Below are positions 45,198 through 62,025 of a stretch of DNA of 64,000 nt, piece after piece. Under the pieces are notes generated by a model. It was not told where the DNA came from and did no database searches. It was given only the letters and a program-made list of their open reading frames with translations. The stretch comes from a virus. Both the position numbers and the translations under genes were made by a program. Each line of letters starts with the position of its first letter. Within the stretch, counting starts at the first letter, position 1. The stretch spans positions 32,001 through 96,000 of the IMG/VR virus record IMGVR_UViG_3300042691_021876. One strand, 5' to 3'.

Positions 45198-46608
45198 ATT
45201 GGTTGGATTCTTCTTCATCATCCTCGGATTGTGAATTGCCAAATACGGCAATACCATCGATTTCTTCTTCATCAATAAATAAGTTCATTGAAGAGCTGCT
45301 TCTATTTTGTGTTCCACGAGATTTTGCTGTATCTGTTAGTCCACTTAAAATTTCTATTGCTGCGTTAAGTTCGATAGTTTGCGCTTTTAACTCTTCGGTT
45401 AGTTCTTTAATTTTTTCTCGCGTTCTTTGCAATTCTTGTTCTGTTAATGACTTAAGATAAATTGAGTCAAGACGACGACGAACATTAGGATATCCTTTAG
45501 TTAAGCCTTTAAGGAATGCCTCAATATCTTCATCAGTATACATCTTGCTCTTTTTAGCTTCAAGCATGTACAGTAAATATTTTTCTTTAAATGTAGAAAA
45601 TAATAATTCTTCATCCGCCTCTTTCTTAAAGTACTCTAGTCTTTTTACTTTAAGTTCAGCCAGACGGTAGCGATAATCGTCAATGTAATCTTCAATACGA
45701 TTATATTCTAATACCATTCCATCTTTAACAAATACTGGTGTTTCAGTTACAATCATTTTAGTTGCTTTCTCAACAGCTTCAACAAAGACTGGCCATTCAG
45801 CCTTGCTTCCAGAAAACTGTAAAAGAACATCAACGTTTGCTTGTGAGTTATTTGTTATTTTAATTGGATGTTTTTCAATAAGAGCTTCAACTTTTTTCAA
45901 GAATGAGCCGTATTTCATTAATGGTGGTAATTCAGTAACACGAATTGTATGGGCTGTTTGGTTTATTTCAATAGCACCTTCAATTAACCAAGTTTTATCT
46001 AATCCTTTATATCTTGTTACTTTACCGCCAAAGTTTTTAAACTTTGGTTTAACTTCTTTAACTTTTCCGTCAAGATATTTTTGAACATCATTAAGATCTC
46101 TTGGTAAAACAGTAGTTGCATATCCAACAGCAATACCTATGATGGTATTAGTAAGACCTATAGGTAGGTCAACCCAGAGTGGGTTCCACGCGCCTTCATC
46201 ATTTTTTAAGTTTAAGAAGCTGCTTTTACGAATCATTTCAGCAATCTTAGGGTTTATACGAACAGACGTATAACGAGCAGCAGATGCTTCATGATTAACT
46301 GGAGATCCAAAGAATCCGTCTCCAAGAAGTAATTGCTCTGAATTTCCAAAAGGACGAGCTAGTTTGTTTATTGCACCGGTTAATGATTTGTCACCGTGGT
46401 GATATCCATCAGTAATACAGGCACCTACCACAGATAAAGATTTGTTAAAACTATGTGGAGCATTCAGCATGATAATTCGCTGAACATTTGTAAGTCCATC
46501 ATAAAAAGAAGGAATCCCGCGATTTTCTAAAACATATAAAGCATAGTTTCTGAAGTTGGTATCAATCTGTCTGGAGATAGGTAAAGGATAAATTTTAGAT
46601 TTTGCCAT
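45190..46608 (-). CDS. type II topoisomerase, GyrA/ParC-like subunit (T4 gp52)
   Basis: RGIPSFYDGL..VQR, YHHGD, G.FGS, ASAARYT, GIAVGYAT. Confidence 0.92.
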   Translation of the reverse strand: MAKSKIYPLPISRQIDTNFRNYALYVLENRGIPSFYDGLTNVQRIIMLNAPHSFNKSLSVVGACITDGYHHGDKSLTGAINKLARPFGNSEQLLLGDGFFGSPVNHEASAARYTSVRINPKIAEMIRKSSFLNLKNDEGAWNPLWVDLPIGLTNTIIGIAVGYATTVLPRDLNDVQKYLDGKVKEVKPKFKNFGGKVTRYKGLDKTWLIEGAIEINQTAHTIRVTELPPLMKYGSFLKKVEALIEKHPIKITNNSQANVDVLLQFSGSKAEWPVFVEAVEKATKMIVTETPVFVKDGMVLEYNRIEDYIDDYRYRLAELKVKRLEYFKKEADEELLFSTFKEKYLLYMLEAKKSKMYTDEDIEAFLKGLTKGYPNVRRRLDSIYLKSLTEQELQRTREKIKELTEELKAQTIELNAAIEILSGLTDTAKSRGTQNRSSSSMNLFIDEEEIDGIAVFGNSQSEDDEEESNQYE

Positions 46609-46717: not shown

Positions 46718-47056
46718 TTAGTCTTCAGGCAATTCCTCAACTTCATCTTCTTCTTCGTCTTCATCTTCTTCTTCTTTTTCTTCCTCTTCACCTGCGTCTT
46801 TAGCAGCATCATCAGCAACTTCTTCAGTTTCTTCTTCAGTTTCTTCAGCAGGAGCATCTTCTGTTGCGTCAGCGGCAGCATCAGTTTCAGCAGCAGCTAT
46901 TTTTGCAGCTTCAGGATTTTCTTCTTTGTCGGTTTCAGCACCAGCATCGGTGTTTACATCCTCTACATCTGTTGTAGTTTCAGTGTCCTCAGTATCTACA
47001 TTCTGTTTTACTAAATCTTCCTTAACAAATGCCTCAAACGTTTTTAAATGTTTCAT
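46718..47056 (-). CDS. very acidic protein with capsid-targeting-like N-terminus
   Basis: MKHLKTFEAFVKE followed by E/D/A/T low-complexity sequence. Confidence 0.7.
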   Translation of the reverse strand: MKHLKTFEAFVKEDLVKQNVDTEDTETTTDVEDVNTDAGAETDKEENPEAAKIAAAETDAAADATEDAPAEETEEETEEVADDAAKDAGEEEEKEEEDEDEEEDEVEELPED

Positions 47057-47076
47057 TGTTATCTTGGTTTTTATTT

Positions 47077-47436
47077 TTATTTTAAAGTAAGTAAATACTT
47101 AAGTTGTTGAACGTCGGCAATAATCTCATCTTTGATGTTAGCCAATTCAGAATCTTGTTCTGCCATGAAAGCATCAACAAAAAATTCTTCAACAGATTTT
47201 AAGAAAGCATCTATTTTAATACTATCATAATCAGCAAGTGTAAATTCTGTTGCTCCACCTAATCTTGGTCTTTGGTATTTACCGCTGTAAACTTCAATTA
47301 AACGGTCAAACTTATCACCTAATGATTCATACGTTCTGTCAAAGGCATTATGTTCTGCAAATGACTCAGTCTGCCAGTGTAAAATTTTTATCTGTGCTGA
47401 AATTTGCAATACATTTAATAAAAGTTCTTTTTCCAT
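47077..47436 (-). CDS. small ferritin/Dps-like protein (DUF5856-like)
   Basis: LHWQT.SFAEH.AFD..YE.L....DRLIE, KYLLTLK; late motif at 47462. Confidence 0.7.
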   Translation of the reverse strand: MEKELLLNVLQISAQIKILHWQTESFAEHNAFDRTYESLGDKFDRLIEVYSGKYQRPRLGGATEFTLADYDSIKIDAFLKSVEEFFVDAFMAEQDSELANIKDEIIADVQQLKYLLTLK

Positions 47437-47482
47437 TTTTATATTCTATTTTGATATTTGGTATATATCACAAGAATAATTC

Positions 47483-49300
47483 CTAGATTGTGCCCTCAAG
47501 CCAGCGTTTTCTTTTTGTAGAGTTTGCGCCGAAAGCAATATCAATAAATTTAGCAGCAGAACGATCTTGTCGGATTCTGAACATTTGTCTTTCAGACATA
47601 ACCACTTCCCAATCTTGTATACTTAAAGATCCTAAACCTTTTAAGTAACGAACTCCTTTATAAGCTGTGCCGCTTTGTTCAAAGGCTGCCCATTCTTGTA
47701 ATGAATAAAAGTATTTTCTTTTTCCACTTACCTCAGCAGAAACAAGCGGAGTAATTAAAATGTTAAGTTTATTTTGTTCTATGACTTGTGGAAACCACTT
47801 ATAAAACAAGTTAATCACTAATGAAGCAATGTGCCCAATACCATCGGGGTCCCAATCAGTAGAAATAGCAATATTTGCAAATGAACATTTGCTGCCATCA
47901 CGAGGATCAAGATTCAAAATATTCATCAAGTCAACAATTTCATTATTAGAGGATAAGTCAGAAATAGACCGAGCATTTTTAATCTTACCTTTAAGTGAAT
48001 AGACTGCATCAATTCTCGGATCTCTCTTTTGTAAAATAGATCCCATAGCTGAACTTCCTTCCACTATAAATAGTGTTCCTTTAGATTGTGAAGGCGGAAA
48101 GTACTTATCAGATATTTTTTTAGCAGCGGCTTTCTTTTTTGCTTTAAGAGCATTCATATCAGCCTTTAAGTTTCTTTCATCAATTTTCTTTTTGACGATT
48201 TCATAAAAAGTTGATCTTAAAATAGCCGGTCTTAATTTCTTAAAGAAATCTTTTTCAAGAGTTTGTTGTATTTCCCAACGGCCACCAGCATACTTAGTTT
48301 TGTTTTGGTCTGCAAACCTAACAAGTTTTGCTGGGAAGTTTAAGATAAGAAGAGTTTCATAAAAGTGATGGGCAGCATTGTACTCAAAGATATCATTAAC
48401 CCAGTCAGTGAATATCTTTTGATGAATACCTGTACATAAAGCACCGTTAATAAATGAAGCACTTGCAGCATTTTCATACTTATCCCAAATTACAAACATA
48501 CCGTGTTTTCCTGTAAAGGTTAAAGCATTCTCTGGTAGGAATTGTTGATTAAGATTAAGTTTCTCTCCATCAAACCAAAATTCAATTTCAAGATTTTGTA
48601 TAACGCCGTCTTGGTTCTTTAAGAACTCGCGGAAGATAAACATTGTGTGTAAGTATTCTTTATCCCAAGTACATCCTTTAAAGATATCCTTACGAGGAAT
48701 GTAAGTAACCGTAGTTCCAGTAGCAGTACCACGTTTCTTCGGTGTAGCATTTTCTGAAACCTTAACAAACTTATTCCAAGTTATATCATATTGGATTTCT
48801 GGGTTAATAGTAGTGATTGTGAATTCATCAGAAAGCATATTCACTAAAGCAGCACCTACACCGTTAGTTCCAATTAAGCTATCTGAAGAATCTTCATTAT
48901 AAAAATTTGAACCAGCTCTTAACATTGACATTGCTGTCTCTACGTTACTGGATTTCGTTTTAGAATTGATTTTTTCAGCATTAATAAATCCGCCGCCTGT
49001 ATCAGTTACAGTTACTCCATTAGTTTTGGAGTCAATCTTAACAATGATTTTAGGCATTGCGCCTTTCATTCTTTTTGCCTCATCAAAGGCATTGTCTACA
49101 ATTTCATTTAGCATCTTATAGAATCCGACAGAGAATATCTTATTCTTTTCTATAAGTTTTCCGTCTTCAACAATTTGTACTTTTTCTTCAGTTTTTTCGA
49201 CTGAACCGATATACATGGTAGGACGATGTATTACGTGCTCGAAGTCGGATAGCGCTACGATTTCCTTATTAGACGTTTGTTCTTTTTTTGCTTTTGCCAT
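47483..49300 (-). CDS. type II topoisomerase, GyrB/ParE-like subunit (gp39+gp60 in one ORF)
   Basis: HVIHRPTMYIGS, EIVDNAFDE, GTNGVG, VEGSSA, LKGKI, TDWDPDG, YLKGLGS. Confidence 0.93.
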   Translation of the reverse strand: MAKAKKEQTSNKEIVALSDFEHVIHRPTMYIGSVEKTEEKVQIVEDGKLIEKNKIFSVGFYKMLNEIVDNAFDEAKRMKGAMPKIIVKIDSKTNGVTVTDTGGGFINAEKINSKTKSSNVETAMSMLRAGSNFYNEDSSDSLIGTNGVGAALVNMLSDEFTITTINPEIQYDITWNKFVKVSENATPKKRGTATGTTVTYIPRKDIFKGCTWDKEYLHTMFIFREFLKNQDGVIQNLEIEFWFDGEKLNLNQQFLPENALTFTGKHGMFVIWDKYENAASASFINGALCTGIHQKIFTDWVNDIFEYNAAHHFYETLLILNFPAKLVRFADQNKTKYAGGRWEIQQTLEKDFFKKLRPAILRSTFYEIVKKKIDERNLKADMNALKAKKKAAAKKISDKYFPPSQSKGTLFIVEGSSAMGSILQKRDPRIDAVYSLKGKIKNARSISDLSSNNEIVDLMNILNLDPRDGSKCSFANIAISTDWDPDGIGHIASLVINLFYKWFPQVIEQNKLNILITPLVSAEVSGKRKYFYSLQEWAAFEQSGTAYKGVRYLKGLGSLSIQDWEVVMSERQMFRIRQDRSAAKFIDIAFGANSTKRKRWLEGTI

Positions 49301-49353
49301 AGTTACCTTTAGATGACTTTATTTTAATGTATAAGTATTATATTAATAAGAAT

Positions 49354-49386
49354 AAAAAAGTTCTGTAGAATTTATCTACAGAACTT
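49354..49386 (-). terminator. intrinsic terminator overlapping a middle-type -35
   Basis: perfect 12-bp stem AAGTTCTGTAGA / TCTACAGAACTT plus T run. Confidence 0.8.
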
Positions 49387-49414
49387 GTATGTTGGTATAA
49401 TGTTTTGGTTTATG

Positions 49415-50287
49415 TTAAAATTCTACAGTAAACGCAAGTTGCTCATTTGAAACTACAACGTCTTTTGCACGGCTAAATGCTTTTGTAATTGCAACTTTAC
49501 CTGCATCATAAACAGCGGTTTTTTCTGGCTCAGATAATTTCTTGAAGGTACTTGGTTTAAAAATAGAACCGCTTTTAGTATCAAACACAACATTTACATA
49601 TTTAGTTTTTCCTGGCGCAGCTTCTTCAATGCCAATGTCTTTACCAGCTTTAGATTTTTGTAAGTCACTGTTTGCAGTTTTACCTACAGCGTCAACAAAA
49701 ATTGCTAATCCATTAACAAAATCAGTTATCTCATCAGCAGTTCCGTTAAAGTACGGAGCATTCACTGGTGAATAAACTGTGTAAGATTCACCCCAACCTG
49801 CTTCTGCATATTCACCGGGCTTTCTCATATCATAACGACCTGTTCTAATTCCGTTAGGAACTGCCATCACCGGTACTTTGCCACCTGTATACTGAATCCC
49901 TGCAGAATAACGAATATCACCATATTCTCCGAATCTCCATTGTGGTTTTCCACCAGCCAAAGATGCTTCTAATAATTGATCATCTGTAAGTTCTTCATTA
50001 AGCTCTTGTTCAGATAAAGTGATATTAAGTTCTTCAGACTCAAAAACAAGCAAATTTGTTTTAGGATCCCATGATGATTTAGGATATTTTGACTTAACTG
50101 CATCAATGATATCTTTAGCATCAGCAGGTGCGCTTACATAACAAGATGCATCATCTTTCCACTTTATAATGTTATAAAGTTCGTCATCAACTTTAGAAAG
50201 CAATTTTTGTACATCAAATTTTGTTCGTTCATTAAGATATTCGTTCTTTTCATTTACAAAAGATTCAAATGTTTTAAAATGTTTCAT
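49415..50287 (-). CDS. hypothetical protein with capsid-targeting-like N-terminus
   Basis: MKHFKTFESFVNE; late motif at 50311-50318. Confidence 0.7.
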   Translation of the reverse strand: MKHFKTFESFVNEKNEYLNERTKFDVQKLLSKVDDELYNIIKWKDDASCYVSAPADAKDIIDAVKSKYPKSSWDPKTNLLVFESEELNITLSEQELNEELTDDQLLEASLAGGKPQWRFGEYGDIRYSAGIQYTGGKVPVMAVPNGIRTGRYDMRKPGEYAEAGWGESYTVYSPVNAPYFNGTADEITDFVNGLAIFVDAVGKTANSDLQKSKAGKDIGIEEAAPGKTKYVNVVFDTKSGSIFKPSTFKKLSEPEKTAVYDAGKVAITKAFSRAKDVVVSNEQLAFTVEF

Positions 50288-50319
50288 TATCTTTACTTAT
50301 TTTTATAGACTATATATCT

Positions 50320-52161
50320 TTAGAATATCTCTGCGTAAGATAAAATTTTAACACCTTTAGATTGAGCTGTCTTAATCTTATTACTTAAATTATTTACGTC
50401 CTCAACAAATAAAACTTTTGCACTTGACATACCTACATGGTGATATCCTTTTTCTTTAGCAGCTTTAACAAATTCGTCCTTGGTTTTAAATCCTGCAGAT
50501 TTTGGAGAACCACTCATCTCAAACGGAATTGAGTCGGCGGCAACCTGCTCTGGAAGAATAATGTTTACGTATTTACTAACAGCGGTAACTATTTCTTCAT
50601 AACGTTTTCTTTTAGATCCACCTGGCTCAAACCCAGCAATTACATCCTTTTGTAATCCGTGGAATGAGTGTGGTAATCCTGTAAGGTAATTTTCTAATTG
50701 CTTAGCAACCGTATGACCCATGCCGTCAATACCCATACACAAGATTAATTTCATTGGATGAATATCCTTAATCTTGGAGATTTCCTTAAACATATTATCC
50801 ACAGTTTTACTGTCTTTAACACCATTTGCTATTAGGATTGCTTTATTAAATTTAGTAGGGTCAAGCAAATCTAATGGATTTCTAAAACCAGCTTCCCATA
50901 TAGAATTAATCATTGCACCACCTACACCATCAAGTCCTAATACATTAATACCAGTATGGAATTTATTTTGTGCTTTTGCAGAGCAGTCAGGATTAACACA
51001 AATTAAATGTACTTCCTGTACTTCTAGTTTTGCCCCACACTTACAGTCAACAGGATGATCCAAAACAGTATTTGGTGATGGCGTAATAACTCGTAAGATT
51101 TGTGGAATAATATCACCGGCCTTAGCGATTGCTACAGTTGCCCCAACCATTGCACCAGATCCTTTAATAAATCCGATGTTGAATAGAGATGCTCGAGAAA
51201 CCATTGAACCGTCAAGATCCACAGGTTCCATTATTGCAACTGGAGTAACTCTTCCAGTTTTACCCCACTGCCACGAGATATCTACGATTTTTGTTATAGC
51301 CTCCTTAGGTGGAAATTTAATTGCGATTGCCCAATTAGGATCATGTGAATTTTCACCAAGTTTGGCACGAAACTCAACAGGAGCCTTGATAACGAATCCA
51401 TCGAGCTGGTAATCTGAAATAGTTTCACGGTAATTTTTCATTACACCGTAAACATGATTAAAGTTATTTGGACCTAACTCAAAATCTATAAATGTAGAAC
51501 GGTGTAGTAATCCAGAAATATCATTTGGATTAAGATATGTAATATCACTGTCAATTTGCTGGCGAGCTTCAACAGCAATAAAATCCATTTCACTAATAGT
51601 TTCTGGTGAATTATCATCACGGTTTAAAACGCCGGCAACAAAGTTACGGGGATTTTTAAAATCATTTGCATATTTAGTGTTAAACGTTGACATTTTGATG
51701 CAAACTTCACCGCGTATTTCTACGGTACCTTCTTGAGATATTGTTTCAGGAACATTATGTTTTACTTTGTCAGTAATATCACGCCCTTTAGTTCCATTAC
51801 CTCGAGAAAGGATTTGAACAAGTTTTCCGTTTGAGTAGATTACGTTTGCAGCGTTTCCGTCAAATTTTGGAGTTGCTTCAAAAAAACGAGCTCCAGTATT
51901 TACCATCCAACGGTTTGCAGATTCAGTAGGAGGTGTACCGTCAGCGGCAGCTTGGTATTTTCCTAATGATAACATTGGAGATGGGTGAGAATATTTTGCC
52001 TTACGATCATCAGCACCTACAATGTAAGGAGCGTCGGAACCCATATTAATTAGTTCCTGTTCCATACGGTCAAATTCATCGTCAGACATAATAGGTTCAC
52101 CAAGATAATAAGATTCCTTGGCTTGAAAATAAAGCTGTTCTAAGTCAAAGCGTTGGTTCAT
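50320..52161 (-). CDS. ligA: NAD+-dependent DNA ligase
   Basis: YY.GEPIMSDDEFD, PKFDG, SRGNG..G.DIT, EIRGE, NPRNFVAG, DGFVIK, WAIAIKF, AGDIIPQI, Zn finger, BRCT-like tail. Confidence 0.93.
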   Translation of the reverse strand: MNQRFDLEQLYFQAKESYYLGEPIMSDDEFDRMEQELINMGSDAPYIVGADDRKAKYSHPSPMLSLGKYQAAADGTPPTESANRWMVNTGARFFEATPKFDGNAANVIYSNGKLVQILSRGNGTKGRDITDKVKHNVPETISQEGTVEIRGEVCIKMSTFNTKYANDFKNPRNFVAGVLNRDDNSPETISEMDFIAVEARQQIDSDITYLNPNDISGLLHRSTFIDFELGPNNFNHVYGVMKNYRETISDYQLDGFVIKAPVEFRAKLGENSHDPNWAIAIKFPPKEAITKIVDISWQWGKTGRVTPVAIMEPVDLDGSMVSRASLFNIGFIKGSGAMVGATVAIAKAGDIIPQILRVITPSPNTVLDHPVDCKCGAKLEVQEVHLICVNPDCSAKAQNKFHTGINVLGLDGVGGAMINSIWEAGFRNPLDLLDPTKFNKAILIANGVKDSKTVDNMFKEISKIKDIHPMKLILCMGIDGMGHTVAKQLENYLTGLPHSFHGLQKDVIAGFEPGGSKRKRYEEIVTAVSKYVNIILPEQVAADSIPFEMSGSPKSAGFKTKDEFVKAAKEKGYHHVGMSSAKVLFVEDVNNLSNKIKTAQSKGVKILSYAEIF

Positions 52162-52180
52162 ATAGTTTTTATTTATAGAG

Positions 52181-52237
52181 CAAAATTAACCAAAAAATCC
52201 CACAAATAAAAATTTATGGGACTAAAGTTATTAACAA
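52181..52237 (-). promoter_or_regulatory. early-type promoter (TTGTTAATAAC box, TAATTTTG)
   Basis: exact TAnnTTTG element at conserved spacing from the box. Confidence 0.7.
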
Positions 52238-52243
52238 TTTTAC

Positions 52244-52897
52244 TTAAAGCTCTATTGCATCTTTTATCTTTTGTAGTTCTGCACACTTTTCATATTCCTC
52301 AGTTTCAAGTAATACGTCAATCATTTGCTGTAACATTAAAAATTTTTCATCATTTGATTTGATACGTACGATTGTCATATCATCTTCATAGATAATGTTG
52401 CTATCATTTTTTATTTCATGTGTAGTTAAGTATTGATATGCTTTCTTAAAGAAATCTTTAATGTTTTCATCAATGTTTCCTGACGGCGTGTATGTCCATT
52501 CTTCTTTTACGAATCCTGAATTATCTAGAGTTCCTGGTGCATTATAAACTCGATTATAAGCAAGAGCAGATTGCAATGCTGATAAGAATCCCGTTTCAAC
52601 TTGGTCTGCAGTATATCTTAAATCACTTTCTTCCATCAAGTCCCATTCATCAGGCATCTGCTGTGGTGGAACTACAAGAACTGTTCCGTACATTGCAACA
52701 TCAAAGAAGAAAGATGCCACCTTGTTAAGTGGCTCTCCGCTTTCTTTTGATTTTTCTCTGTACATAACCCAAATAGGGCCAATCTTAATTGGTTCTATCC
52801 AACCTTCAACATTATCATTTAGTTCATCAAGATTAAATTTTCTTGATGCTGGTTGGATTACCCTAACGATTGCGTCTGATGTTATCTTTACTGCCAT
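52244..52897 (-). CDS. hypothetical protein with C-terminal UVR-like motif
   Basis: LDEL...VEGWIE N-terminus; EEYEKCAELQK C-terminus. Confidence 0.6.
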   Translation of the reverse strand: MAVKITSDAIVRVIQPASRKFNLDELNDNVEGWIEPIKIGPIWVMYREKSKESGEPLNKVASFFFDVAMYGTVLVVPPQQMPDEWDLMEESDLRYTADQVETGFLSALQSALAYNRVYNAPGTLDNSGFVKEEWTYTPSGNIDENIKDFFKKAYQYLTTHEIKNDSNIIYEDDMTIVRIKSNDEKFLMLQQMIDVLLETEEYEKCAELQKIKDAIEL

Positions 52898-52900
52898 ATC

Positions 52901-54742
52901 TTAACCTTCACAAGATACACAATCAGGATCTGTTGCTCTTGCGGCAATATCACCACGAAGCACTGATTCTGTTCTCATGTAATATAATGTTTTAACTCCT
53001 TGTTTCCAAGCCTCCATATGAACCGCGTTAATCCATTTAGGTTCTGCGGTAGATGGGAATGCAAGATTTAATGAAACTGCTTGGTCAACATATTGCTGAC
53101 GAACACCTGCTTGTTTTACTAAGTCTAATTGGTTAATTTCTTTAAACGTTTTAAATACATCTTTAACAGAATACAATTCGTCTGGCATAATTTTACGTTC
53201 GGCTAAACTATCTTTAGTAAGATCTAATTCTATTAGCTTTCCATTATGAAACCACCATTCATCAAGAAAATCTAATCCTTGTACTGAACCGCCGTCTGTT
53301 AAGATTTGGTCCCAAGTTTCTTTATTGTTCTTTCCTATTTTCTTTAATACCTTTTCAAGCTCAAAGTTTTTACGAATGAATGTGCCTTTTGCGGTTTGCT
53401 CTGTAAATACATTAGCCGCCCAAGGTTCTGCGCCTGAAGAAACATTACCACTTAATTTAGAATTAGAAACCGTAGGTGCTACTGCTCTTAAGTGTGTATT
53501 TCTAAATCCTGTATCTCTACACCATAGTGGTTCTCCAAATTCCGCAGCAAGATCACGAGAAGCTCTTTCACTTTCAATTTTCATTTGAGAAAAAATCTTA
53601 CGAGTTTCAAATTGTGCTTGAAGGCCTTCAAACGGTAATCCTTTTTGTTGTAAGTAAGTATGCCAACCAAGGATTCCTAATCCAAGTGCTCTACCTTTTT
53701 CTGCGGAACGTACAGAATTTTCAAATCCTCTAAGTCCTTTTGCTTTTTGTATAAATTCTTCAAGTACTCCATCTAAAAATATAGTTGACGTATAGATTAA
53801 ATCTGTATCTCTCCATTCATCATATTTTGCAAGATTAAGAGAACTTAAACAACAAACAAATGAGTGTGATTCATCAGTATGTAAAACAATTTCTGAACAG
53901 ATGTTAGTCATAAATACTTTTAATCCATTCTTTTTATATGCTTCAGGGTTTTGATTATTTACATTTCCTTTATACATAATGTACGGTTCGCCAGTACCTT
54001 TACGTTTTTGTAATAACTTACCCCATTTACGTCTTGCCTCAGGATCTCCGTCTTGAAGTTTTCTCATAAACTTATTTCCAACTATTGCGCATTGGTGTAG
54101 GTTTAATGATTGACGATTAACATCTCCTTTAGGTTCTCTAATTTCCAGCCATTCCTCAAAGTCTTTATGTTCAATACTCATATTTACAGAAGCAGCACCT
54201 CGACGAACAGAACCTTGATTTGTTGCAAGAATGGTTGAGTCATAAATTTTACAGAATGGCACTACACCATCTGATGTTCCATTACCTGTAATCTTAGCAC
54301 CTGCTGGGCGAATTTGATTAATTCCAATGCCAACACCGCCTCCATGTTTTGCAAGAAGCATAAGTTCAAGATTCTTATTTCCAATTTCATAAATAGAATC
54401 CCCAACATCAATACCAAAACATGAGATTGGTAAACCGCGGTCAGACCCTGTATTGGAAAGAACTGGTGTTGCTAAACATAACCACCCTTTCCAAATATAA
54501 TCAAAAAACTTTGAAGCTAATTGAGGTTTACCTAACCTACGAGCAACAGTTGTACATACTCTCCAATAAGCATCTTTTGGTTTTTCTCCAGGTAAAAGAT
54601 AGCCTTTACTTATTGTCTTAACATAAATTTCTGTGTTACCCCACATTGGGTAATCTACGCCAAGTTCCCAGCCTAATGCTGCGCCGTGATGTGTACCTTT
54701 GATTGGTTCTTTTGGAACTTCAGATGTCTCTTCTCTAAACAT
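52901..54742 (-). CDS. nrdA: ribonucleotide reductase class Ia alpha subunit
   Basis: LATPVLSN, PISCF, GGGVG, TNICSEI, VCCLSS, APTVSNS, KTLYY, C-terminal CVSCEG. Confidence 0.95.
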   Translation of the reverse strand: MFREETSEVPKEPIKGTHHGAALGWELGVDYPMWGNTEIYVKTISKGYLLPGEKPKDAYWRVCTTVARRLGKPQLASKFFDYIWKGWLCLATPVLSNTGSDRGLPISCFGIDVGDSIYEIGNKNLELMLLAKHGGGVGIGINQIRPAGAKITGNGTSDGVVPFCKIYDSTILATNQGSVRRGAASVNMSIEHKDFEEWLEIREPKGDVNRQSLNLHQCAIVGNKFMRKLQDGDPEARRKWGKLLQKRKGTGEPYIMYKGNVNNQNPEAYKKNGLKVFMTNICSEIVLHTDESHSFVCCLSSLNLAKYDEWRDTDLIYTSTIFLDGVLEEFIQKAKGLRGFENSVRSAEKGRALGLGILGWHTYLQQKGLPFEGLQAQFETRKIFSQMKIESERASRDLAAEFGEPLWCRDTGFRNTHLRAVAPTVSNSKLSGNVSSGAEPWAANVFTEQTAKGTFIRKNFELEKVLKKIGKNNKETWDQILTDGGSVQGLDFLDEWWFHNGKLIELDLTKDSLAERKIMPDELYSVKDVFKTFKEINQLDLVKQAGVRQQYVDQAVSLNLAFPSTAEPKWINAVHMEAWKQGVKTLYYMRTESVLRGDIAARATDPDCVSCEG

Positions 54743-54765
54743 TTAATTTGATATTTTTAATTTGA

Positions 54766-55785
54766 TTAAAACCAGCTATCTGCGTCCCAATTCTCACCTT
54801 CATTTGGTTTTGAATAATCTGTACTTCGGATTGCAAAGAAATCCGTATGAGTAGTTCCGCCTGTTAAATGATAGAACCAATCAAGTTTTTCAGCTTTCTT
54901 TTTATTATACTCAAAGTACTTATCACCACCTGGAATTGCATTATAGCCAAGTTCTGCTAGTTTTTCGTTTGTTCTTTGTTTAATAAATTCTTTTAAGTCA
55001 GATGCTTTAAGGTTTTCAAGATCACCCATTTCAAACATCTTATCAATAAAATTGCATTCAAGTTGCACAATTAATTCTGCAGCTTGTGCAATATCTCCAG
55101 CACATTCTTCAAGAAGTTCTGGGTATTCTTCACACATATGACGGAATAATTGACATCCCATTTTAGAATGTAAAGATTCATCACGTACTGACCATTTCAT
55201 TTGCTGCCCGATACCTTTTAATAGATCTCTCATTTGAAAACTATATAACACCGCAAAAGATGAATAAAGAGAAACACCTTCAGCAAAAGCTGAAAAGATT
55301 GCCAAAGAACGCCCTACTTCTCGTCTTGCTTGTGGATTATTCTTTAATTGTTTTGGAGTCCAATCTGCAGATGTACTTGTTAGTAACTCAAATTTTTCTT
55401 TGGTAGCAGGTTCATGCAAAAATGCTTCAAAATTATCAAGTCCTAATGTTTCATTAAGATATGAATATGCAGTTGCATGAATAGTTTCTTGTGATCCAAA
55501 CATCATTGCCATTTGACGTATCTCATGTTTAGGAAACCACTTGGTAACCATACCTGTCCAATAGTCGGATACGGCACATTCTGTTTGTGCAAAACCTAAA
55601 AGGATGTTTCCAACTAAATGTTTTTCTGATGGGGTTAATTTTTCGCTCCAATCTTTTACATCACTTTGCATTGCAATTTCTGTATGCAACCAAAATGCTT
55701 GCGCTTGTGGCAACCAGCCTTCGGTATAATAGACCGGGTATTCAAAAGGCTTATACGGTATCCTTTCAGTAAATAGTTTGCTCAT
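54766..55785 (-). CDS. nrdB: ribonucleotide reductase class Ia beta subunit
   Basis: FW...E, ETIHA..YS, EGVSLYSSF, RDESLH, DFFA...TDY. Confidence 0.95.
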   Translation of the reverse strand: MSKLFTERIPYKPFEYPVYYTEGWLPQAQAFWLHTEIAMQSDVKDWSEKLTPSEKHLVGNILLGFAQTECAVSDYWTGMVTKWFPKHEIRQMAMMFGSQETIHATAYSYLNETLGLDNFEAFLHEPATKEKFELLTSTSADWTPKQLKNNPQARREVGRSLAIFSAFAEGVSLYSSFAVLYSFQMRDLLKGIGQQMKWSVRDESLHSKMGCQLFRHMCEEYPELLEECAGDIAQAAELIVQLECNFIDKMFEMGDLENLKASDLKEFIKQRTNEKLAELGYNAIPGGDKYFEYNKKKAEKLDWFYHLTGGTTHTDFFAIRSTDYSKPNEGENWDADSWF

Positions 55786-55794
55786 AATTTATGT

Positions 55795-57183
55795 TTACTT
55801 TATATATTCTTTAAGTTGCTCTATCTCATCTTCAATCGCCATGTAAGCTCCTTTGGCAACTTTTCTTTGCGCATAGTAATCAGCTAAGATAGAACGGAAT
55901 ACCGAATCTTCATCATTTCGGAATAAAGCACCTGATGAACATTTTAGATATTTTTCTTTATCGTATTCTTCACCTGGAGCAACATTACCGACGTATGATT
56001 CTGGTGATATGTTCCACTGCCTCATAACAGATGGATATAGGGAAGCAAAGTCAAATGCAGCTACCCATTCATACAGTCCAGTGATAGGATCCACAACAAA
56101 TGCACCTTCGTATGCTTCACGTTTTTTAGTTTGCTTTTCAGTTCTTGGGAATACTCGACCTCGTCGATAATTTTCTCGGGTCATTGCAGCTTCTGCCATC
56201 CAGATTGGTGAATAAGCACGGTTAGCCTCAACTCGCGTAATACCTCCTAATGATAAGAACGTTTCCATTGTGTTAAGTTTCTTGTCTATAAGTTCTACAA
56301 GAATTGTATCTACTGCATTATAGTATATGTATGTTTCATAATCGTTTTCATACATTTCCTGAATAGTTCCGTTATACTTAACTTTCTGTATCCCTAAGGC
56401 TGCTTTAGCAACATAATCCAGTGTGTTGTTTTCTTTTATATCGATTACCCTATCCCATTTTTTGTATACATCTAAATAATCGACTACTAGACGGTGCATA
56501 GGTAATTGGATATCTCCAATAAGTTTTTGTGATGGAGAGCAAGGACTTGGGTCAATGTTTAAACGTTTACAGCGATTAATAAGATAAGTCCAGTCATACC
56601 CAATAAAATTCCAACCTGTAAGAAGTGGCATTTTAAGAATAGCTTTGTAAAAGAAACTTACAAGCATATCATATTCAGTTTCAAATTTTAGATAGTTATA
56701 TTCTATCTCTTCTTGAATATGATCTTTAAAGTGCTCTTTCATTCTTTTCTTAATATTCATAATCTGCGCCGCGGTTAAAGGTTTAACTCCAAGCGTGATT
56801 ACTTTATTATCACTGCAGAATGTAATTGCTGTTACTGGTGTTTTGGCAGTTTCAGGTTTTGGCCATTCGTCGCCAACAAATGTTTCAATATCAAGAAACC
56901 ATTTCTTAGGTCTATGTGACGAAAAGATATTTTGAGTTGCAGACGGAGGCAAGGATAATAAAAATTCTTCAATCCGCCACTTACTCAAGTATCGAGATCG
57001 TTTCTTTTTTACTTGTTTTCCATCCCAAGACAGAACACCCGGAAAGGGCTTCTCTCCGGGCTGTAAGTACTCCCATTCAAACATTTGGTCAGGCGGTATC
57101 ATTATTCGCTCAATAGCAATTTCACCGCGTTCATTAAAGTATGATATCTTTAACGAACCATCATACTGTTCAATATCAATCAT
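55795..57183 (-). CDS. B-family DNA polymerase, N-terminal subunit (3'-5' exonuclease plus motif A)
   Basis: ExoI LDIET, ExoII GWN..GYD, ExoIII YNAVD, YEGAFV, FDFASLYPS...NISPE; ends in the fingers helix. Confidence 0.92.
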   Translation of the reverse strand: MIDIEQYDGSLKISYFNERGEIAIERIMIPPDQMFEWEYLQPGEKPFPGVLSWDGKQVKKKRSRYLSKWRIEEFLLSLPPSATQNIFSSHRPKKWFLDIETFVGDEWPKPETAKTPVTAITFCSDNKVITLGVKPLTAAQIMNIKKRMKEHFKDHIQEEIEYNYLKFETEYDMLVSFFYKAILKMPLLTGWNFIGYDWTYLINRCKRLNIDPSPCSPSQKLIGDIQLPMHRLVVDYLDVYKKWDRVIDIKENNTLDYVAKAALGIQKVKYNGTIQEMYENDYETYIYYNAVDTILVELIDKKLNTMETFLSLGGITRVEANRAYSPIWMAEAAMTRENYRRGRVFPRTEKQTKKREAYEGAFVVDPITGLYEWVAAFDFASLYPSVMRQWNISPESYVGNVAPGEEYDKEKYLKCSSGALFRNDEDSVFRSILADYYAQRKVAKGAYMAIEDEIEQLKEYIK

Positions 57184-57689
57184 TAGTATCCTCGTTTTTG
57201 ACGGTCTCTATTCTCTTGATTTTTACACATGTACATATTATACATTTCAGCCGATGTCATTCCAATTGATGCAGCATAATTCATAAAGAAGTGTAGCATG
57301 TCAACGATTTCAAATTTACATTCAATTTTATCGTCTTCAGATAGATCACTGAATTTCATATCAGCGTATTTAGGATAGTCTTTTTTCCAGCGTTTCCAAA
57401 TTGCATTACCGCCATTGCTTATTCCGCCAAGTGCATCGGTTGCTTCATGAATTTCATCAATGATTGCGTGTGTATTCATTGCCCAGAAATCCATTACCTG
57501 TCGTAAAGACATATTCTCAAAATCATATCCGTAAACATTTTTTTGAGTTTCAGCTTGTAGATTTAAGATATCACCTAATGTATCAGGGCCTGTTGGTAAA
57601 CCATCTTTAATATTAACAGGATTTGTAATTGCCTTTATCCATAAATCTTCTATGTTTAAATTTGCACAGGAATTGTCTATGTTTGCCAT
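57183..57689 (-). CDS. dimeric dUTPase / MazG-like nucleotide pyrophosphatase (T4 gp56-like)
   Basis: DEIHE, WKRWK, EIVDMLHFF, KNQENRDRQKRGY. Confidence 0.8.
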   Translation of the reverse strand: MANIDNSCANLNIEDLWIKAITNPVNIKDGLPTGPDTLGDILNLQAETQKNVYGYDFENMSLRQVMDFWAMNTHAIIDEIHEATDALGGISNGGNAIWKRWKKDYPKYADMKFSDLSEDDKIECKFEIVDMLHFFMNYAASIGMTSAEMYNMYMCKNQENRDRQKRGY

Positions 57690-57895
57690 TAGTTAAGTTA
57701 TTTAGTTTTAATTGATAGTTATATTCAATACAATTATATTGGTTCTTTAAAAATAATTCTTAGTTTCAAGAACTATTTAAAAACTGTGTATAAAACCTAT
57801 ATCTTAACGGTTGGAAGTAGACTACAAACTAAGACAACAAATGGAACTTAATGTAGTTCCATGTAAATTCTCAGATAAAAGAAGAAGACTTAGTC

Positions 57896-58666
57896 TTACC
57901 CTAATTTAATTAAAACAAATATTACAACTTCTGCTGCACCGCAGTCTGAAAGTTGTTTTAACATTTCCTTAATTGTTGTTCCACTTGTTTTATAATCATC
58001 AACAAGTATTACTTTTTTACCTTCAACTGCATTAAACAGTTTTCTATCTTCAGATTTATTAAACTTGATAAAATCATGAAAGAATTTTCTATACGCAGAA
58101 AATATTTCTTTTATCTTGAAAGGCTTATCGGGGGCTGTTGCTTTCTCAAAAGATTTCATTACACTTTTATAAGTTTTCTCTGGTAAGTTATTAACTTTAT
58201 TCATATCTAGTGTAATGTCAGTAGAAGCATTTTTAACAAACGCTTCAGAAAATAAATTAGCAACTCCGCTTTTCTTTTGTAATTGGTTTACAACTTCTGT
58301 AAGAATTAAAGAAGAACTTGTGGGAGAAACTATAGTGTCAAATTTGTTAGCACCAAAAACATTGTCAAAGCCCATTACCGCTTTATTTACAAGTTGGGAT
58401 ACATCTCTGGGTTTTATGTTATCATCAAGAGTTTTCAAACTTTTCATAAAATCTGTTGAGAAATCTGACTTTAACATTTCATATGCGTAATAATACGTAT
58501 ATGTAGTTTCACTACCTTCAAACTTTAGTGTTTTACCTCGGTACTTTTTAAATTGTAAGGGCATAACATCATCAGGCATGTCAGCAAGCCAGTCAAACTC
58601 AAATGTGTCACCAACCTTTTTAACGCCTTCTTTAACGTATGATTCAAATGTTTTTATGTATTTCAA
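57896..58666 (-). CDS. type I phosphoribosyltransferase-fold protein with capsid-targeting-like N-terminus
   Basis: MKYIKTFESYVKE (TTG start); PRPP-binding loop VILVDDYKTSGTT. Confidence 0.75.
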   Translation of the reverse strand: MKYIKTFESYVKEGVKKVGDTFEFDWLADMPDDVMPLQFKKYRGKTLKFEGSETTYTYYYAYEMLKSDFSTDFMKSLKTLDDNIKPRDVSQLVNKAVMGFDNVFGANKFDTIVSPTSSSLILTEVVNQLQKKSGVANLFSEAFVKNASTDITLDMNKVNNLPEKTYKSVMKSFEKATAPDKPFKIKEIFSAYRKFFHDFIKFNKSEDRKLFNAVEGKKVILVDDYKTSGTTIKEMLKQLSDCGAAEVVIFVLIKLG

Positions 58667-58668
58667 AA

Positions 58669-59286
58669 CTATTTAGACTTATGAATTGTTGATAAGATTC
58701 CTGAAATGTATAAAGCAGCATTTTTTATAGCTGTCTTCTCAGCAACAGTAAATCTGTGCTTATCTTTAACAAATTCTACACCTAATACTCCGTGCAGTTT
58801 ACCAGATGGAGTTTTTAAACATGCCATAAAAAGTGACTGACAGCCTGTTTCATTAGCGCTATCACTTAATCCATACGAGTTTGTGTTAGGGTCAGTCATA
58901 TCGTATACTTCCAATATATTTTTATCAGCAATTTCTTTTAATGATTTACTAAAAAAACTTGTTGGCACGTTTTGAAATGATTGTTGAATAAAAGAAGTAC
59001 CTGTACTTACAACTTCATAAAAAACGCTAAACTTTTTTATTGATACTCCTGATGAATAATAATGTCCACCGTTATGAAACTGTGTAACCCATATACGGTC
59101 GCATCCTATATTAGTAAGAAGTGCTTGTATTTGCTCATCAACTTGTACGTCAATTAACATTTCTTCATACATTGGATCTGTTTGCTTTTTACGGCTTAAC
59201 TTGTTTTTTACAACTTCCAAAATACTCGGGCCAATCACTGCCGTAATTAACGCCACTCCTATTGTTGCTATAATAGATGCTTCCAT
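58669..59286 (-). CDS. N-terminal TM plus GAF-like domain protein (putative T4 T-type holin)
   Basis: single N-terminal TM; DRIWVTQFHNGG...GVLGVEF GAF-like pattern. Confidence 0.5.
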   Translation of the reverse strand: MEASIIATIGVALITAVIGPSILEVVKNKLSRKKQTDPMYEEMLIDVQVDEQIQALLTNIGCDRIWVTQFHNGGHYYSSGVSIKKFSVFYEVVSTGTSFIQQSFQNVPTSFFSKSLKEIADKNILEVYDMTDPNTNSYGLSDSANETGCQSLFMACLKTPSGKLHGVLGVEFVKDKHRFTVAEKTAIKNAALYISGILSTIHKSK

Positions 59287-59298
59287 TCTTTAATGATT

Positions 59299-59439
59299 TT
59301 ATCGGCCTTGTCCTCTATAAGCTTTCGGTCTTTGTTCTTTAGGACCGTATTGCTTTTTAGCTTTGCCTGTCTTTTTTGATTTTGATTTGTAAGCTGATGT
59401 TGAGCTTGTTGTTCCTGATTTCTTTGTTACTTTTGCCAC
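59299..59439 (-). CDS. 46-aa very basic protein ending YRGQGR (absent from the ORF track)
   Basis: GTG start; MAKVTKKSGTTSSTSAYKSKSKKTGKAKKQYGPKEQRPKAYRGQGR; fills the gap between two genes. Confidence 0.7.
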   Translation of the reverse strand: MAKVTKKSGTTSSTSAYKSKSKKTGKAKKQYGPKEQRPKAYRGQGR

Positions 59440-60011
59440 TGTTTTTTGTGCATTTTTTTGAATTGCTCGTAACTAAGAATTCCTTTTTGTTTTGCCACGT
59501 CATCATCGTCATCATCTCCGAATTTGTCGCCCGAGCCGATTGTACCCGGTCCTGGTGCAGATACATTGCCCATACCTGGTGTATTATTGACACTTGCTTG
59601 CGGTGCAGAAAAACCTCCTGCAGCGGATGCAGCACCAGTATCTTCGGTTAATTGAGCAACTTCTTGTTTACTAGGTTGCTTTCCGGTTTCAATAAATTCC
59701 ATAAATGTTTTAATTAAGTTATCTTTGTGATCTCTAAGCGTTGGTTCGTATTGCATTGCGGCTTGGGCTGATTGTGTATACCATTTGTGTCCAGCGGAAA
59801 CTCCAGGTAGCCACTCATTTACTTTAGCTTCATCAGCATGATCTGGTAGACCTTCATGCTTGGTTTCAGCAAAATCTTTAAGTTGCTGCAATGTCATGCT
59901 ATCAGCAAGATCTTTTACTTCTTGACTTGCATCTTTAGGGTCCATGTCTCCTTTTTTCAAAGCATAGGCCATACCCATTAAACGTTGTTGTGCTTTACTT
60001 GTAGACGGCAT
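59427..60011 (-). CDS. DUF3008-like protein
   Basis: MPSTSKAQQRLMGMAYA.KKG...SMT..QLKDFA.TKHEGLP. Confidence 0.7.
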   Translation of the reverse strand: MPSTSKAQQRLMGMAYALKKGDMDPKDASQEVKDLADSMTLQQLKDFAETKHEGLPDHADEAKVNEWLPGVSAGHKWYTQSAQAAMQYEPTLRDHKDNLIKTFMEFIETGKQPSKQEVAQLTEDTGAASAAGGFSAPQASVNNTPGMGNVSAPGPGTIGSGDKFGDDDDDDVAKQKGILSYEQFKKMHKKQWQK

Positions 60012-60012
60012 C

Positions 60013-60825
60013 TTATTTATTAATTTTACCTGCTCTTACTCTATCACGAGATACGGAGTTAAGATATTTTATTTCATCAGCAGATAACTTTGGTTCAATA
60101 AGTTTTTTCCATTTACCTTCTTGTTGATTTTTAGGAAGATTTAAGAAGTCTATAACTTCCGGATCATCTTTTAATTTTGCAAGAATCTTATTTACGGCTG
60201 TATCTCTTTTGTGCTCATTCCACCAATCTTTTAAATCATCAATAGGATGAAAGTCCAATTTATTTGAAAGCAATGCGAATTGACCTGCAACTGCAGCAGC
60301 TTGCAATAATATAACAGCAGTCATTAAAGCGCTTTCATTAAGATCTGTATAATCTTCAGATTCTTTTAATCCAAATATAGCTCTAACTTTATCTAATTCT
60401 TTTTTGTCACCAGATAAAGTCATAACGCCATTCATTTGTCCGACAATCTCAAATTTTAAAGGATTTAATTCTCTTTGAATTTTTTTATCATTCCATATAG
60501 AATATGGATGTCCGGAAATTTCTAGAGTGTCTTCATCAAGAACATCTTCAGATTCTTTAATGAACTTGCCACCTTTCACAGGAACTATTACATACTTTAA
60601 ACCGTAATGGGATTTCTCACCTGGTGATAAATTAGCATTCATTCTTTTTGCTTTAGCTTTGGCATTATCAAGTGTCAATAGCCATTCATCTTTAGGCACA
60701 TCCATTCCAGCATATCCTTTAGCGTCTCTTGGTCGAGGTTTATCACCAATACTTCCGCCAACCAACATTACTGCATAGTCATTAGCTTCATTAATAAAGT
60801 CTTCGTATAGTTTTATGTGTTTCAT
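60013..60825 (-). CDS. hypothetical protein with capsid-targeting-like N-terminus
   Basis: MKHIKLYEDFINE; internal KES/LNE linkers. Confidence 0.7.
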   Translation of the reverse strand: MKHIKLYEDFINEANDYAVMLVGGSIGDKPRPRDAKGYAGMDVPKDEWLLTLDNAKAKAKRMNANLSPGEKSHYGLKYVIVPVKGGKFIKESEDVLDEDTLEISGHPYSIWNDKKIQRELNPLKFEIVGQMNGVMTLSGDKKELDKVRAIFGLKESEDYTDLNESALMTAVILLQAAAVAGQFALLSNKLDFHPIDDLKDWWNEHKRDTAVNKILAKLKDDPEVIDFLNLPKNQQEGKWKKLIEPKLSADEIKYLNSVSRDRVRAGKINK

Positions 60826-60852
60826 AATGTGTAATTTACTATGTCTGTAATT

Positions 60853-61560
60853 TTATTTAGCTTGCTTAACTGCATTAACTAATTCAATGATGGCATCGTA
60901 CAATTCTGTATCATAACTAGTTCGCATATGATATCCAGAAACAATCGTTTTGAGTGCATTTGCTGCATTCTTAACTTCTTGGTTATAATCTTTATAATAT
61001 TGTGCTATATCAGTTATAGCAGTTCTTTCTGTTAAAGCTTTCTGCGCATCTTCATTTAAGAAGTCTACAGATTCTTTTAAATACCCTTCATCAGAATATC
61101 CTGCAATATATGAAATATCACCTTTTGCTGAGCCCTCTAAAAATTTAACTTTAGTTTTTGAGTCTCTTGCTAATTCTATCACTTCAAACTTACCGTGCTT
61201 TGGATGATTATAAATTTCTCCAACTACAAATTTTGAATACTCATTAACGGCAGATTCTTCAAGTTTACTTTCTGACATATATTCGTAAACATCACCTTTA
61301 AAGTTTTGAAGACCACGCTCTTTACTATAATATAAAGTTAATAGTTGGTTATTGCGAGTTAGCACCTCAATTTCTTTAATATTACTTGAGCCGCCAAATA
61401 TTTTTTTTACTGTGTACTTTCCTACATCACCAGTTCTTGTATTTGTTAATTCTATAGTATCTTTTGCTTTTATCTTAGATACGTCAAATTCTTCATTGAC
61501 TGCTAATTCTTGTAGTTTACTTTCAGCAATAAAATTTTCATATGTTTGTATATGTTTCAT
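60853..61560 (-). CDS. hypothetical protein with capsid-targeting-like N-terminus
   Basis: MKHIQTYENFIAE; internal VNE/LNE linkers. Confidence 0.7.
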   Translation of the reverse strand: MKHIQTYENFIAESKLQELAVNEEFDVSKIKAKDTIELTNTRTGDVGKYTVKKIFGGSSNIKEIEVLTRNNQLLTLYYSKERGLQNFKGDVYEYMSESKLEESAVNEYSKFVVGEIYNHPKHGKFEVIELARDSKTKVKFLEGSAKGDISYIAGYSDEGYLKESVDFLNEDAQKALTERTAITDIAQYYKDYNQEVKNAANALKTIVSGYHMRTSYDTELYDAIIELVNAVKQAK

Positions 61561-61563
61561 TAC

Positions 61564-61905
61564 TTATACTTTATTTAATTGCTGAATAGCACGATGAACT
61601 CTTTCACCAAGGCTAGATAGCTTATATGTTTTCTTTCCATTTTTTTCAGTAATCTTAAAGTACTGTGGATTCTTGGTTAACCATTTTCTTGAAGTGCTAC
61701 CGCCAGTTTCTTCGTTCATAGATTTCATAAATTCCATCATATCTTCATATGACACTGTTCCGTTTTCTTTAACGAACGATAAAACCTTTTCACGGACAGG
61801 TCCGTGTTGGTTAACATTTTTAGAAGGATAGATGTCAGTGTATTTTCTTTTTACTGTCACCTTTGCTTCATTTATAAATTCTTCAAAGCTATATATGTGG
61901 CTCAT
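61564..61905 (-). CDS. basic winged-helix-like protein with capsid-targeting-like N-terminus
   Basis: MSHIYSFEEFINE; REKVLSFVKENGTVSYEDM...YKLSSLGER. Confidence 0.6.
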   Translation of the reverse strand: MSHIYSFEEFINEAKVTVKRKYTDIYPSKNVNQHGPVREKVLSFVKENGTVSYEDMMEFMKSMNEETGGSTSRKWLTKNPQYFKITEKNGKKTYKLSSLGERVHRAIQQLNKV

Positions 61906-62000: not shown

Positions 62001-62025
62001 TATCTGAAGTTATTTGGTTTATATA

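Follow-up and report, generated by a model that had tools for sequence, protein, structure and literature searches.

In bacteriophage T4, internal proteins that are otherwise diverse are brought to the scaffolding core by a short N-terminal capsid-targeting sequence (CTS), which the protease gp21 removes after a Glu residue (PMC3012670, PMC5694885). Giant phages of the phiKZ type, in which a diverged protease paralogue is also present (PMC5694885), offer a second comparison: in phiKZ, 201phi2-1 and SPN3US many head-internal proteins are cut after Glu by a gp21-related protease, with propeptides of mostly over 100 residues that have no single shared tag and with the cleavage motif A/S/G-x-E. 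Here, a family of genes is described whose otherwise unrelated products begin with a common 13-residue tag. Six of the genes lie in a 64,000-nucleotide stretch of viral DNA (the window, referring to the whole stretch analyzed), which represents bases 32001-96000 of a linear IMG/VR viral contig of 106,534 bp (record IMGVR_UViG_3300042691_021876). The tag is probably a capsid-targeting propeptide of the T4 CTS type, in which case the proteins behind it (the cargo) would be loaded into the head and injected. Head loading is the best-supported reading of the sequences, and it is strengthened by the occurrence of the tag motif in the scaffold repeats of related phages and by a tagged gene within their head module.

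A shared N-terminal tag on unrelated proteins

A total of 16 tagged genes were identified on the contig by a six-frame regular-expression search and a 15-position hidden Markov model (HMM); six of them are in the window, and the whole set falls within 78.7-106.4 kb of the contig. The set consists of 14 canonical tags, one short form (MDFATFESFISE) and one GTG-started form (MTNLHTYESFLNE) that is hidden within a longer open reading frame (ORF) call and requires the GTG start. In the six-frame contig search the canonical tags were matched by the HMM with E-values of 4e-9 to 1e-5, the GTG-started tag with 0.02 and the short form with 0.09, and the next best match on the contig had an E-value above 1. 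All 16 tags stand at the start of an ORF (at a re-called start for the GTG-started gene) and are strictly N-terminal, and the six starts in the window each lie 1-14 codons past an upstream in-frame stop. The recurrence of the tag on the contig is far beyond chance. An earlier note on this DNA had listed six proteins with a shared N-terminus in the window; all six were recovered on the minus strand with their starts as listed below, and pattern and profile searches, the latter as the note had suggested, extended the family to the 16 genes on the contig and to many relatives in IMG/VR.

The consensus of the tag on the contig is MKHIKTFExFINE (pattern M-K-[HY]-[IV]-K-[TL]-[FY]-E-x-F-[IVL]-N-E). 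Among the canonical tags, position 11 is I, V or L in 14 out of 14 and position 13 is E in 12 out of 14, with D and T in the other two. An all-against-all BLASTP comparison of the cargos with the tag removed returned nothing with an E-value below 0.4, in agreement with the description of the six window proteins as unrelated beyond their first residues. Pairwise comparison of the tag codons gave 199 synonymous and 504 nonsynonymous codon differences, synonymous variation was found at every conserved tag residue, and the DNA upstream of the tagged genes is not conserved. Selection therefore acts on the tag peptide and not on the DNA.

Two neighboring, unrelated tagged genes at contig positions 96694 and 97104 (L003:2650-2694 and L003:3060-3104) share a near-identical 17-residue leader (MKYIKLFEQFINESGNS). 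The DNA of the two leaders contains only two synonymous differences over the first 16 codons, indicating that the leader was copied recently.

A degenerate DNA pattern of the tag matched at least 120 stretches in IMG/VR. Among the matches listed, the tag-bearing contigs range from 5 to 482 kb with arrays of up to 10 consecutive tagged genes, the complete tagged ORFs have a median length of 147 aa (before de-duplication), and the 119 non-redundant tagged ORFs have the consensus MKH[IV]KLFEQF[IVL]NE. Two positions that the DNA pattern had left free, 6 (L or T) and 12 (N), are nonetheless conserved in these tags. The residue that follows the tag Glu in the 119 tags is most often A (37), S (19), K (18) or G (11), such that A, S or G is found in 56% of them. 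The number of tags per genome (E-value ≤0.01) is 49 in G001 (482 kb), 23 in G004, 20 in G003, 14 in G002, and 3 in G006, and the huge phage genome LR756500.1 contains about 25 tags with the variant consensus MKYIKEYEEFIxE. A tblastn search of a phage collection with a 25-aa tag peptide gave no match, the query being too short, and a literature search found nothing that contains the tag peptide strings or links the CTS to metagenomic phages.

Relation to T4 capsid targeting and head assembly

The T4 genome was searched with an HMM built only from the 14 tags of this contig. In six frames, the only matches with an E-value ≤1 were the N-termini of ipII and ipIII (E-values 0.0016 and 0.0026). Since these alignments took in two non-coding residues upstream of the start codon, the search was repeated on real starts only (3030 T4 candidates), and here ipII came out first and ipIII third (E-values 0.02-0.03). 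In two tag-less Bacteroidota phages, PTm1 (225 kb) and Lak-B4 (551 kb), together 775 kb, the HMM found no match with an E-value ≤1. The CTS-like nature of the tag, as claimed by the earlier note, is thus measurable (ipII first, ipIII third) and is accompanied by T4-type head genes in the lineage, whereas the E-values themselves are marginal.

The second-ranked T4 start belongs to gp61.1, a 54-aa hypothetical protein of the early region (NC_000866 18966-19130, L044) that starts MKTFKEFIKE and is as CTS-like as ipII and ipIII by tag-profile score. We know of no report of gp61.1 as a head protein.

The tag and the CTS of ipII and ipIII are both short N-terminal peptides common to otherwise unrelated proteins; the comparison set in T4 also includes the propeptides of Alt and gp24. 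The tag core K-T-[FY]-x-x-F-I-x-E aligns with K-T-Y-Q-E-F-I-A-E of the CTS, and at its end the tag has [ILV]-x-E, with a small residue next, matching the gp21 type of site. As in T4, the lineage carries gp20-, gp21-, and gp23-type head genes, the cargo is hypervariable between relatives (as are the internal-protein loci of T-even phages), and the genes are scattered among replication genes yet stand behind putative late-type promoters, in the manner of ipII and ipIII. The tag differs from the CTS in being three residues longer at the N-terminus and the system differs from that of T4 in size (16 tagged genes within 106 kb, and as many as 49 in one genome, vs a handful in T4), in a protease that is fused within the clade to a scaffold whose repeats carry the tag core motif, in the many tagged cargos that consist of several modules with tag-end-like linkers, and in its carriers, which are uncultured phages with genomes of 250-480 kb, known here from sequence alone and probably infecting Bacteroidota. 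The tagged genes probably represent a much expanded and modular variant of the T4 internal-protein system, carried by huge phages that are uncultured.

The contig is 37% complete by CheckV rating and carries nearly all of its genes on the minus strand. It encodes a gp20-type portal, large terminase, sheath, UvsX, and a split DNA polymerase, as well as topoisomerase II, ribonucleotide reductase, and NAD-dependent ligase. By portal sequence the contig stands closest to two uncultured huge phages, LR756500.1 (462 kb, 49% identity) and LR756504.1 (636 kb), followed by Lak megaphages of Prevotella and Tenacibaculum phage PTm1. Together with these portal relatives, the lack of Shine-Dalgarno sequences and the early promoter form suggest that the host is probably a member of the Bacteroidota. 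A megablast search of the region against cultured phages gave no match and a search for related loci returned only two distant relatives. The contig is syntenic with the relative G003 (256 kb, terminal repeats). An identical copy of the 270-aa tagged protein of the window (60013-60825, P0003) is present on a 257,067-bp public contig, which is probably a fuller genome of the same phage.

A gp21-family (S77) protease-scaffold fusion (600-750 aa) was found in 14 out of 20 large tag-bearing IMG/VR records (E-values 1e-29 to 1e-46), the 14 including all three records that are at least 90% complete. The fusion in G003 (604 aa) keeps the motifs ELDHP and SSR, aligned with the same motifs of T4 gp21, and its scaffold half is made up of 14-residue repeats each with [YF]-x-x-[YH]-[ILV]-A-E. 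The core motif [FYW]xx[FYWH][ILV]xE occurs 27 times N-terminally and 19 times internally in the G003 proteome, and eight of the 19 internal copies are located in the 604-aa fusion (0.09 expected, P = 9e-14). In LR756500.1, the scaffold fusion likewise ranks first among the proteins for the core motif (3 copies vs 0.18 expected), and gp22, the scaffold protein of T4, shows a CTS-like start, MLKEQLIAE-A. Such scaffold-repeat mimicry and a shared 13-mer are both absent from phages of the phiKZ type, and in PTm1 the scaffold repeat differs and there is no shared N-terminal tag family.

The head module of G003 includes a tagged acidic protein of 130 aa that is encoded between the portal and the protease-scaffold genes, and this protein is conserved in eight further genomes, where its gene lies directly upstream of that for the protease-scaffold. 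T4 has gp67 and gp68 at the corresponding place, between portal gene 20 and protease gene 21. The 112-aa tagged protein of the window (46718..47056) has a gp67-like acidic tail and a composition that resembles this T4 prohead core protein. The tagged acidic proteins differ from gp67 and gp68 in that no sequence homology is detectable and in that the acidic tagged gene of the contig does not lie in a head module.

The N-terminus of the capsid protein of the clade is homologous to the propeptide of T4 gp23, with a conserved L-[YN]-E near residue 46. The capsid start M-A-x-L-I-N-E-A-E-I was considered as a counterpart of the T4 gp23 cleavage site and rejected, as it aligns with the start of the T4 propeptide. 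A search for PF07068 (gp23) on the contig found nothing, which is uninformative because the control genomes are equally silent. Between clamp loader and portal, G003 carries capsid, protease-scaffold, and small tagged core genes. The same slot of the contig (window 27686-31066) contains only a DnaQ-like exonuclease gene; the head module of this phage has therefore been relocated or lies off the contig.

The sole gp21-like gene of the contig is located outside the window at contig position 6441-6875 (L001) among nucleotide-metabolism genes, and encodes a 144-aa paralogue. It has GELHYP and MRPR, with a shifted His, where T4 gp21, G003, and PTm1 have E[LM]xHP and SSR. This Ser-less protein is comparable to the diverged protease paralogue of phiKZ-type phages, and gp21-like paralogues of 132-135 aa are also present in G002, G004, and G005.

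Promoters, gene context and cargo

The minus strand of the contig carries 21 copies of the octamer [AG]ATATATA and the plus strand two. The octamer stands 12-60 nt ahead of structural genes, among them those for portal, sheath, and head closure, a placement from which it is probably a late promoter. Five of the six copies within the replication-gene region precede tagged genes or a cassette containing one, and the sixth precedes the gene for the small subunit of ribonucleotide reductase. Expression timing was assessed by motif, as the type of the nearest upstream recognizable promoter motif. This motif is late for 10 tagged genes and early for none (the remaining six, at the contig end, have no recognizable promoter), compared with 55 late and 44 early among the untagged genes (Fisher P = 0.005). 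The nearest motif is of the late type for all six tagged genes in the window, at a distance of 31-3361 nt. The placement of the six genes downstream of a late motif, proposed by the earlier note, thus holds by nearest motif and is weak for the gene starting at 58666, with its motif 3.4 kb away. An early promoter class, TTGTTAATAACTT ... TTTGC ... TTGGTTAATTTT, is present 13 times on the minus strand and not on the plus strand (e.g., window 52170-52240) and precedes no tagged gene. The note had named an equal frequency of the tag among early genes as a refutation of its reading; with no tagged gene behind an early promoter, this test does not refute it.

The tagged genes of the window and the elements around them are as follows (window coordinates).

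44592..45275, minus strand: ClpP-family protease gene (Pfam PF00574, E-value 2.4e-28), outside the proposed system
46718..47056, minus strand: tagged gene 1, 112 aa, with an extremely acidic tail behind MKHLKTFEAFVKE (HMM E-value 2e-7)
3' of 46718..47056, minus strand: hairpin with T-run behind tagged gene 1
47077..47436, minus strand: untagged DUF5856 gene (Pfam PF19174, E-value 7e-14), opening a late-motif cassette that holds tagged gene 1
47462..47469, minus strand: late-type motif GATATATA, 33 nt upstream of the DUF5856 gene
49358..49386, minus strand: terminator-like hairpin with a 12-pair stem and T-run, directly 3' of tagged gene 2
49415..50287, minus strand: tagged gene 2, 290 aa, MKHFKTFESFVNE (HMM E-value 1.5e-7), flanked by NAD ligase and topoisomerase genes
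50311..50318, minus strand: late-type motif GATATATA, 31 nt before tagged gene 2
57862-57841, minus strand: terminator-like hairpin, 3' of tagged gene 3
57896..58666, minus strand: tagged gene 3, 256 aa, started by TTG, MKYIKTFESYVKE; its C-terminal domain is a phosphoribosyltransferase (PRTase)
60013..60825, minus strand: tagged gene 4, 270 aa, with three small modules behind MKHIKLYEDFINE
60853..61560, minus strand: tagged gene 5, 235 aa, MKHIQTYENFIAE, of all tags the closest to T4 MKTYQEFIAE
61564..61905, minus strand: tagged gene 6, 113 aa, MSHIYSFEEFINE, first of three tagged genes in a late-motif block
62020..62027, minus strand: late-type motif GATATATA, 122 nt before tagged gene 6
63810..64000, minus strand: 3' end of a seventh tagged gene (locus L003), 294 aa, start at window-equivalent position 64694, MKYIKLFEQFINE

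Nine further tagged genes lie beyond the window, up to the contig end. Terminator-like hairpins follow three of the tagged units, which therefore appear to be self-contained cassettes; tagged gene 2, with its promoter motif and hairpin, is a predicted cassette of this kind. Tagged gene 1 is co-oriented behind the DUF5856 gene with the late-type motif 413 nt upstream.

The PRTase domain of tagged gene 3 (PF00156, E-value 1.6e-8, residues 193-253) is the sole Pfam domain among the six tagged proteins of the window and the only functional assignment among their cargos. Neither Pfam nor PHROGs contains a family for tagged gene 1 or for the cargo of tagged gene 2, tagged gene 3 has only two weak PHROG matches of unknown function, and no tagged protein of the contig matches a named PHROG family. 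Outside the window, the tagged proteins of the contig have one PAP2 domain and one weak RegB-like match in Pfam.

The tagged genes of the contig occupy the same syntenic slots as those of G003 and carry non-orthologous cargo, and where orthologues exist they may have the tag, lack it, or show it in a decayed form. One tagged contig protein has a G003 orthologue of 69% identity with an alignment that starts right after the tag, and on the contig the tag is decayed in a protein that is 50% identical to its G003 orthologue, which is tagged and Acb1/2H-like. The cargo domain of tagged gene 6 matches an internal domain of a 674-aa G003 protein. Among the database homologues of the 270-aa protein of tagged gene 4, 58 out of 59 begin with the tag. 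Its three modules are joined by the tag-end-like linkers FIKE/SEDVLDE and GLKE/SEDYTDLNE, and modules two and three are also found directly behind the tag in other proteins. The 235-aa protein of tagged gene 5 contains two copies of the linker SKL.E.AVNE ahead of separate small domains, and its second module recurs behind the tag in P0019, P0021, and P0050. Cargo modules are thus shuffled at tag and linker sequences, and they are 70-80% identical across many phages.

An AlphaFold2 (AF2) model of the 270-aa protein has a predicted local distance difference test (pLDDT) score below 50 at, among others, residues 1-12, 92-97, and 156-162. These segments coincide with the tag and the two linkers, which are detached in the model, and a Foldseek search of the model against the PDB returned nothing with an E-value below 0.06. 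The AF2 single-sequence model of the 235-aa protein is poor (mean pLDDT 44).

The 108 cargos of the IMG/VR matches listed have few Pfam matches, which include 2H phosphoesterase/Acb1, GNAT, Pol-beta-type nucleotidyltransferase, cREC, and LRR. Acb1 is an anti-CBASS enzyme. A role of the cargo in anti-defence or host takeover is suggested by these few cargos of relatives (Acb1-like 2H phosphoesterase, GNAT, and nucleotidyltransferase).

A 528-aa late protein of the window (33289-34875) has the highest density of [ILV]xE sites on the contig (6.2 per 100 aa vs about 1.7). It has no BLASTP match in G003 and no PHROG family, and could be a protease-processed core or scaffold-like protein.

Proposed mechanism, alternatives and implications

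As proposed here, the tagged genes would be transcribed late from GATATATA-type promoters, often as promoter-gene-terminator cassettes among replication genes. The tag would imitate one repeat unit, [YF]-x-x-[YH]-[ILV]-A-E, of the scaffold part of the gp21-type protease-scaffold fusion and would therefore co-assemble with the scaffolding core during prohead formation. The prohead protease would then cut after the final Glu of the tag, at a site of [ILV]-x-E followed mostly by A, S, or G, and probably also at the tag-end-like linkers between cargo modules, and the freed cargo would stay in the head and enter the host with the DNA. Scaffold binding, tag cleavage, packaging, injection, and effector function of the cargos are all inferred from the gene and protein sequences.

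Several observations weigh against head loading and injection. The T4 CTS match is marginal in E-value without the two borrowed upstream residues. The timing is supported by the nearest-promoter test only: the presence of a late motif ≤150 nt upstream of tagged genes is not significant (P = 0.23 on the contig, P = 0.09 in G003) and no promoter is recognizable for the six tagged genes near the contig end. The contig, at 37% completeness, contains no capsid, scaffold, or active protease gene; its 144-aa gp21-like paralogue, with MRPR where the SSR serine motif would be, is probably catalytically inactive, so that the evidence on protease and scaffold is drawn from relatives. No cultured relatives carrying the tag were found, the corresponding PHROG families being empty and PTm1 being without a tag family. 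To our knowledge, 16-49 tagged genes per genome exceeds any documented packaged set. Finally, one tagged protein is a PAP2-family phosphatase, and such phosphatases are often membrane-bound.

Some of the same data could be explained if the tag served assembly only, with its carriers being filler or accessory core proteins that, like the scaffold, are broken down and expelled and are not delivered as effectors. This would suit the sole conserved tagged gene, which lies in the head module and is acidic like T4 gp67, the window gene at 46718-47056, which is mostly acidic tail, and the many internal [ILV]xE sites and linkers in the cargos (e.g., 5.5 sites per 100 aa in the 235-aa protein of tagged gene 5 vs about 1.7 genome-wide). 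However, folded enzymes are numerous among the cargos of relatives (Acb1-like 2H phosphoesterase, GNAT, nucleotidyltransferase, PRTase, and PAP2), and a module identity of 70-80% across many phages is hard to square with filler, which makes a purely structural role unlikely.

The ClpP gene that adjoins the region (window 44592-45275) raises the question of whether the tag is an N-terminal degron or signal for the phage ClpP-family protease and a host unfoldase that times turnover and is unrelated to the capsid. ClpP was found in 5/5 tag-bearing genomes tested and is missing from the tag-less PTm1, but T4 has a CTS and no ClpP, and a degron would leave unexplained why the tag core equals the scaffold repeat, why a tagged gene lies in the head module, why the tag resembles the T4 CTS, and why tagged genes are absent from early promoter blocks; this explanation is judged to be very improbable. 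Least plausible of all is a shared start that acts as nucleic acid with a functionless peptide (a translation-initiation leader for non-Shine-Dalgarno hosts or a recombination cassette), for which the A/T-rich codons, the missing Shine-Dalgarno sequences before the genes, the recently copied 16-codon leader of two neighboring genes, and the module shuffling at tags could be cited, but which is contradicted by the synonymous variation at every conserved residue, the unconserved upstream DNA, the retention of aromatic and acidic positions, the absence of the leader from those late structural genes whose N-termini were read (capsid, portal, and sheath), and the recurrence of the motif within the scaffold protein.

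Within the preferred reading of the tag as a capsid-targeting propeptide, a more far-reaching version can be put forward tentatively. The tag may literally be one scaffold repeat unit through which its carriers are built into the core, the cargos may be polyproteins that are cut at the linkers into dozens of domains, and about 10-15% of the genes of these huge phages may constitute a recombining library of injected proteins, including counter-defence enzymes such as Acb1-like phosphoesterases. If this is true, the protein payload would far exceed, in size and in modularity, what has been documented for any phage.

If the capsid-targeting reading is right, the link between tag and scaffold repeat would offer a testable account of how a CTS acts, by imitation of the scaffold; we know of no settled answer to this question, even for T4. 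The tag could further be used as a tool for the packaging of foreign proteins into capsids. Should the reading be wrong, about one gene in eight of these phages would still carry a 13-residue signal in need of an explanation. If it is right, the tag at the start of a gene would predict the injected proteome of widespread uncultured huge phages, a rule by which 16 genes of the contig, as many as 49 in a genome, and hundreds of unannotated cargo families are flagged. Since injected proteins act before phage gene expression, these families would be prime candidates for counter-defence and takeover factors, and a few cargos of the relatives already match the anti-CBASS enzyme Acb1.

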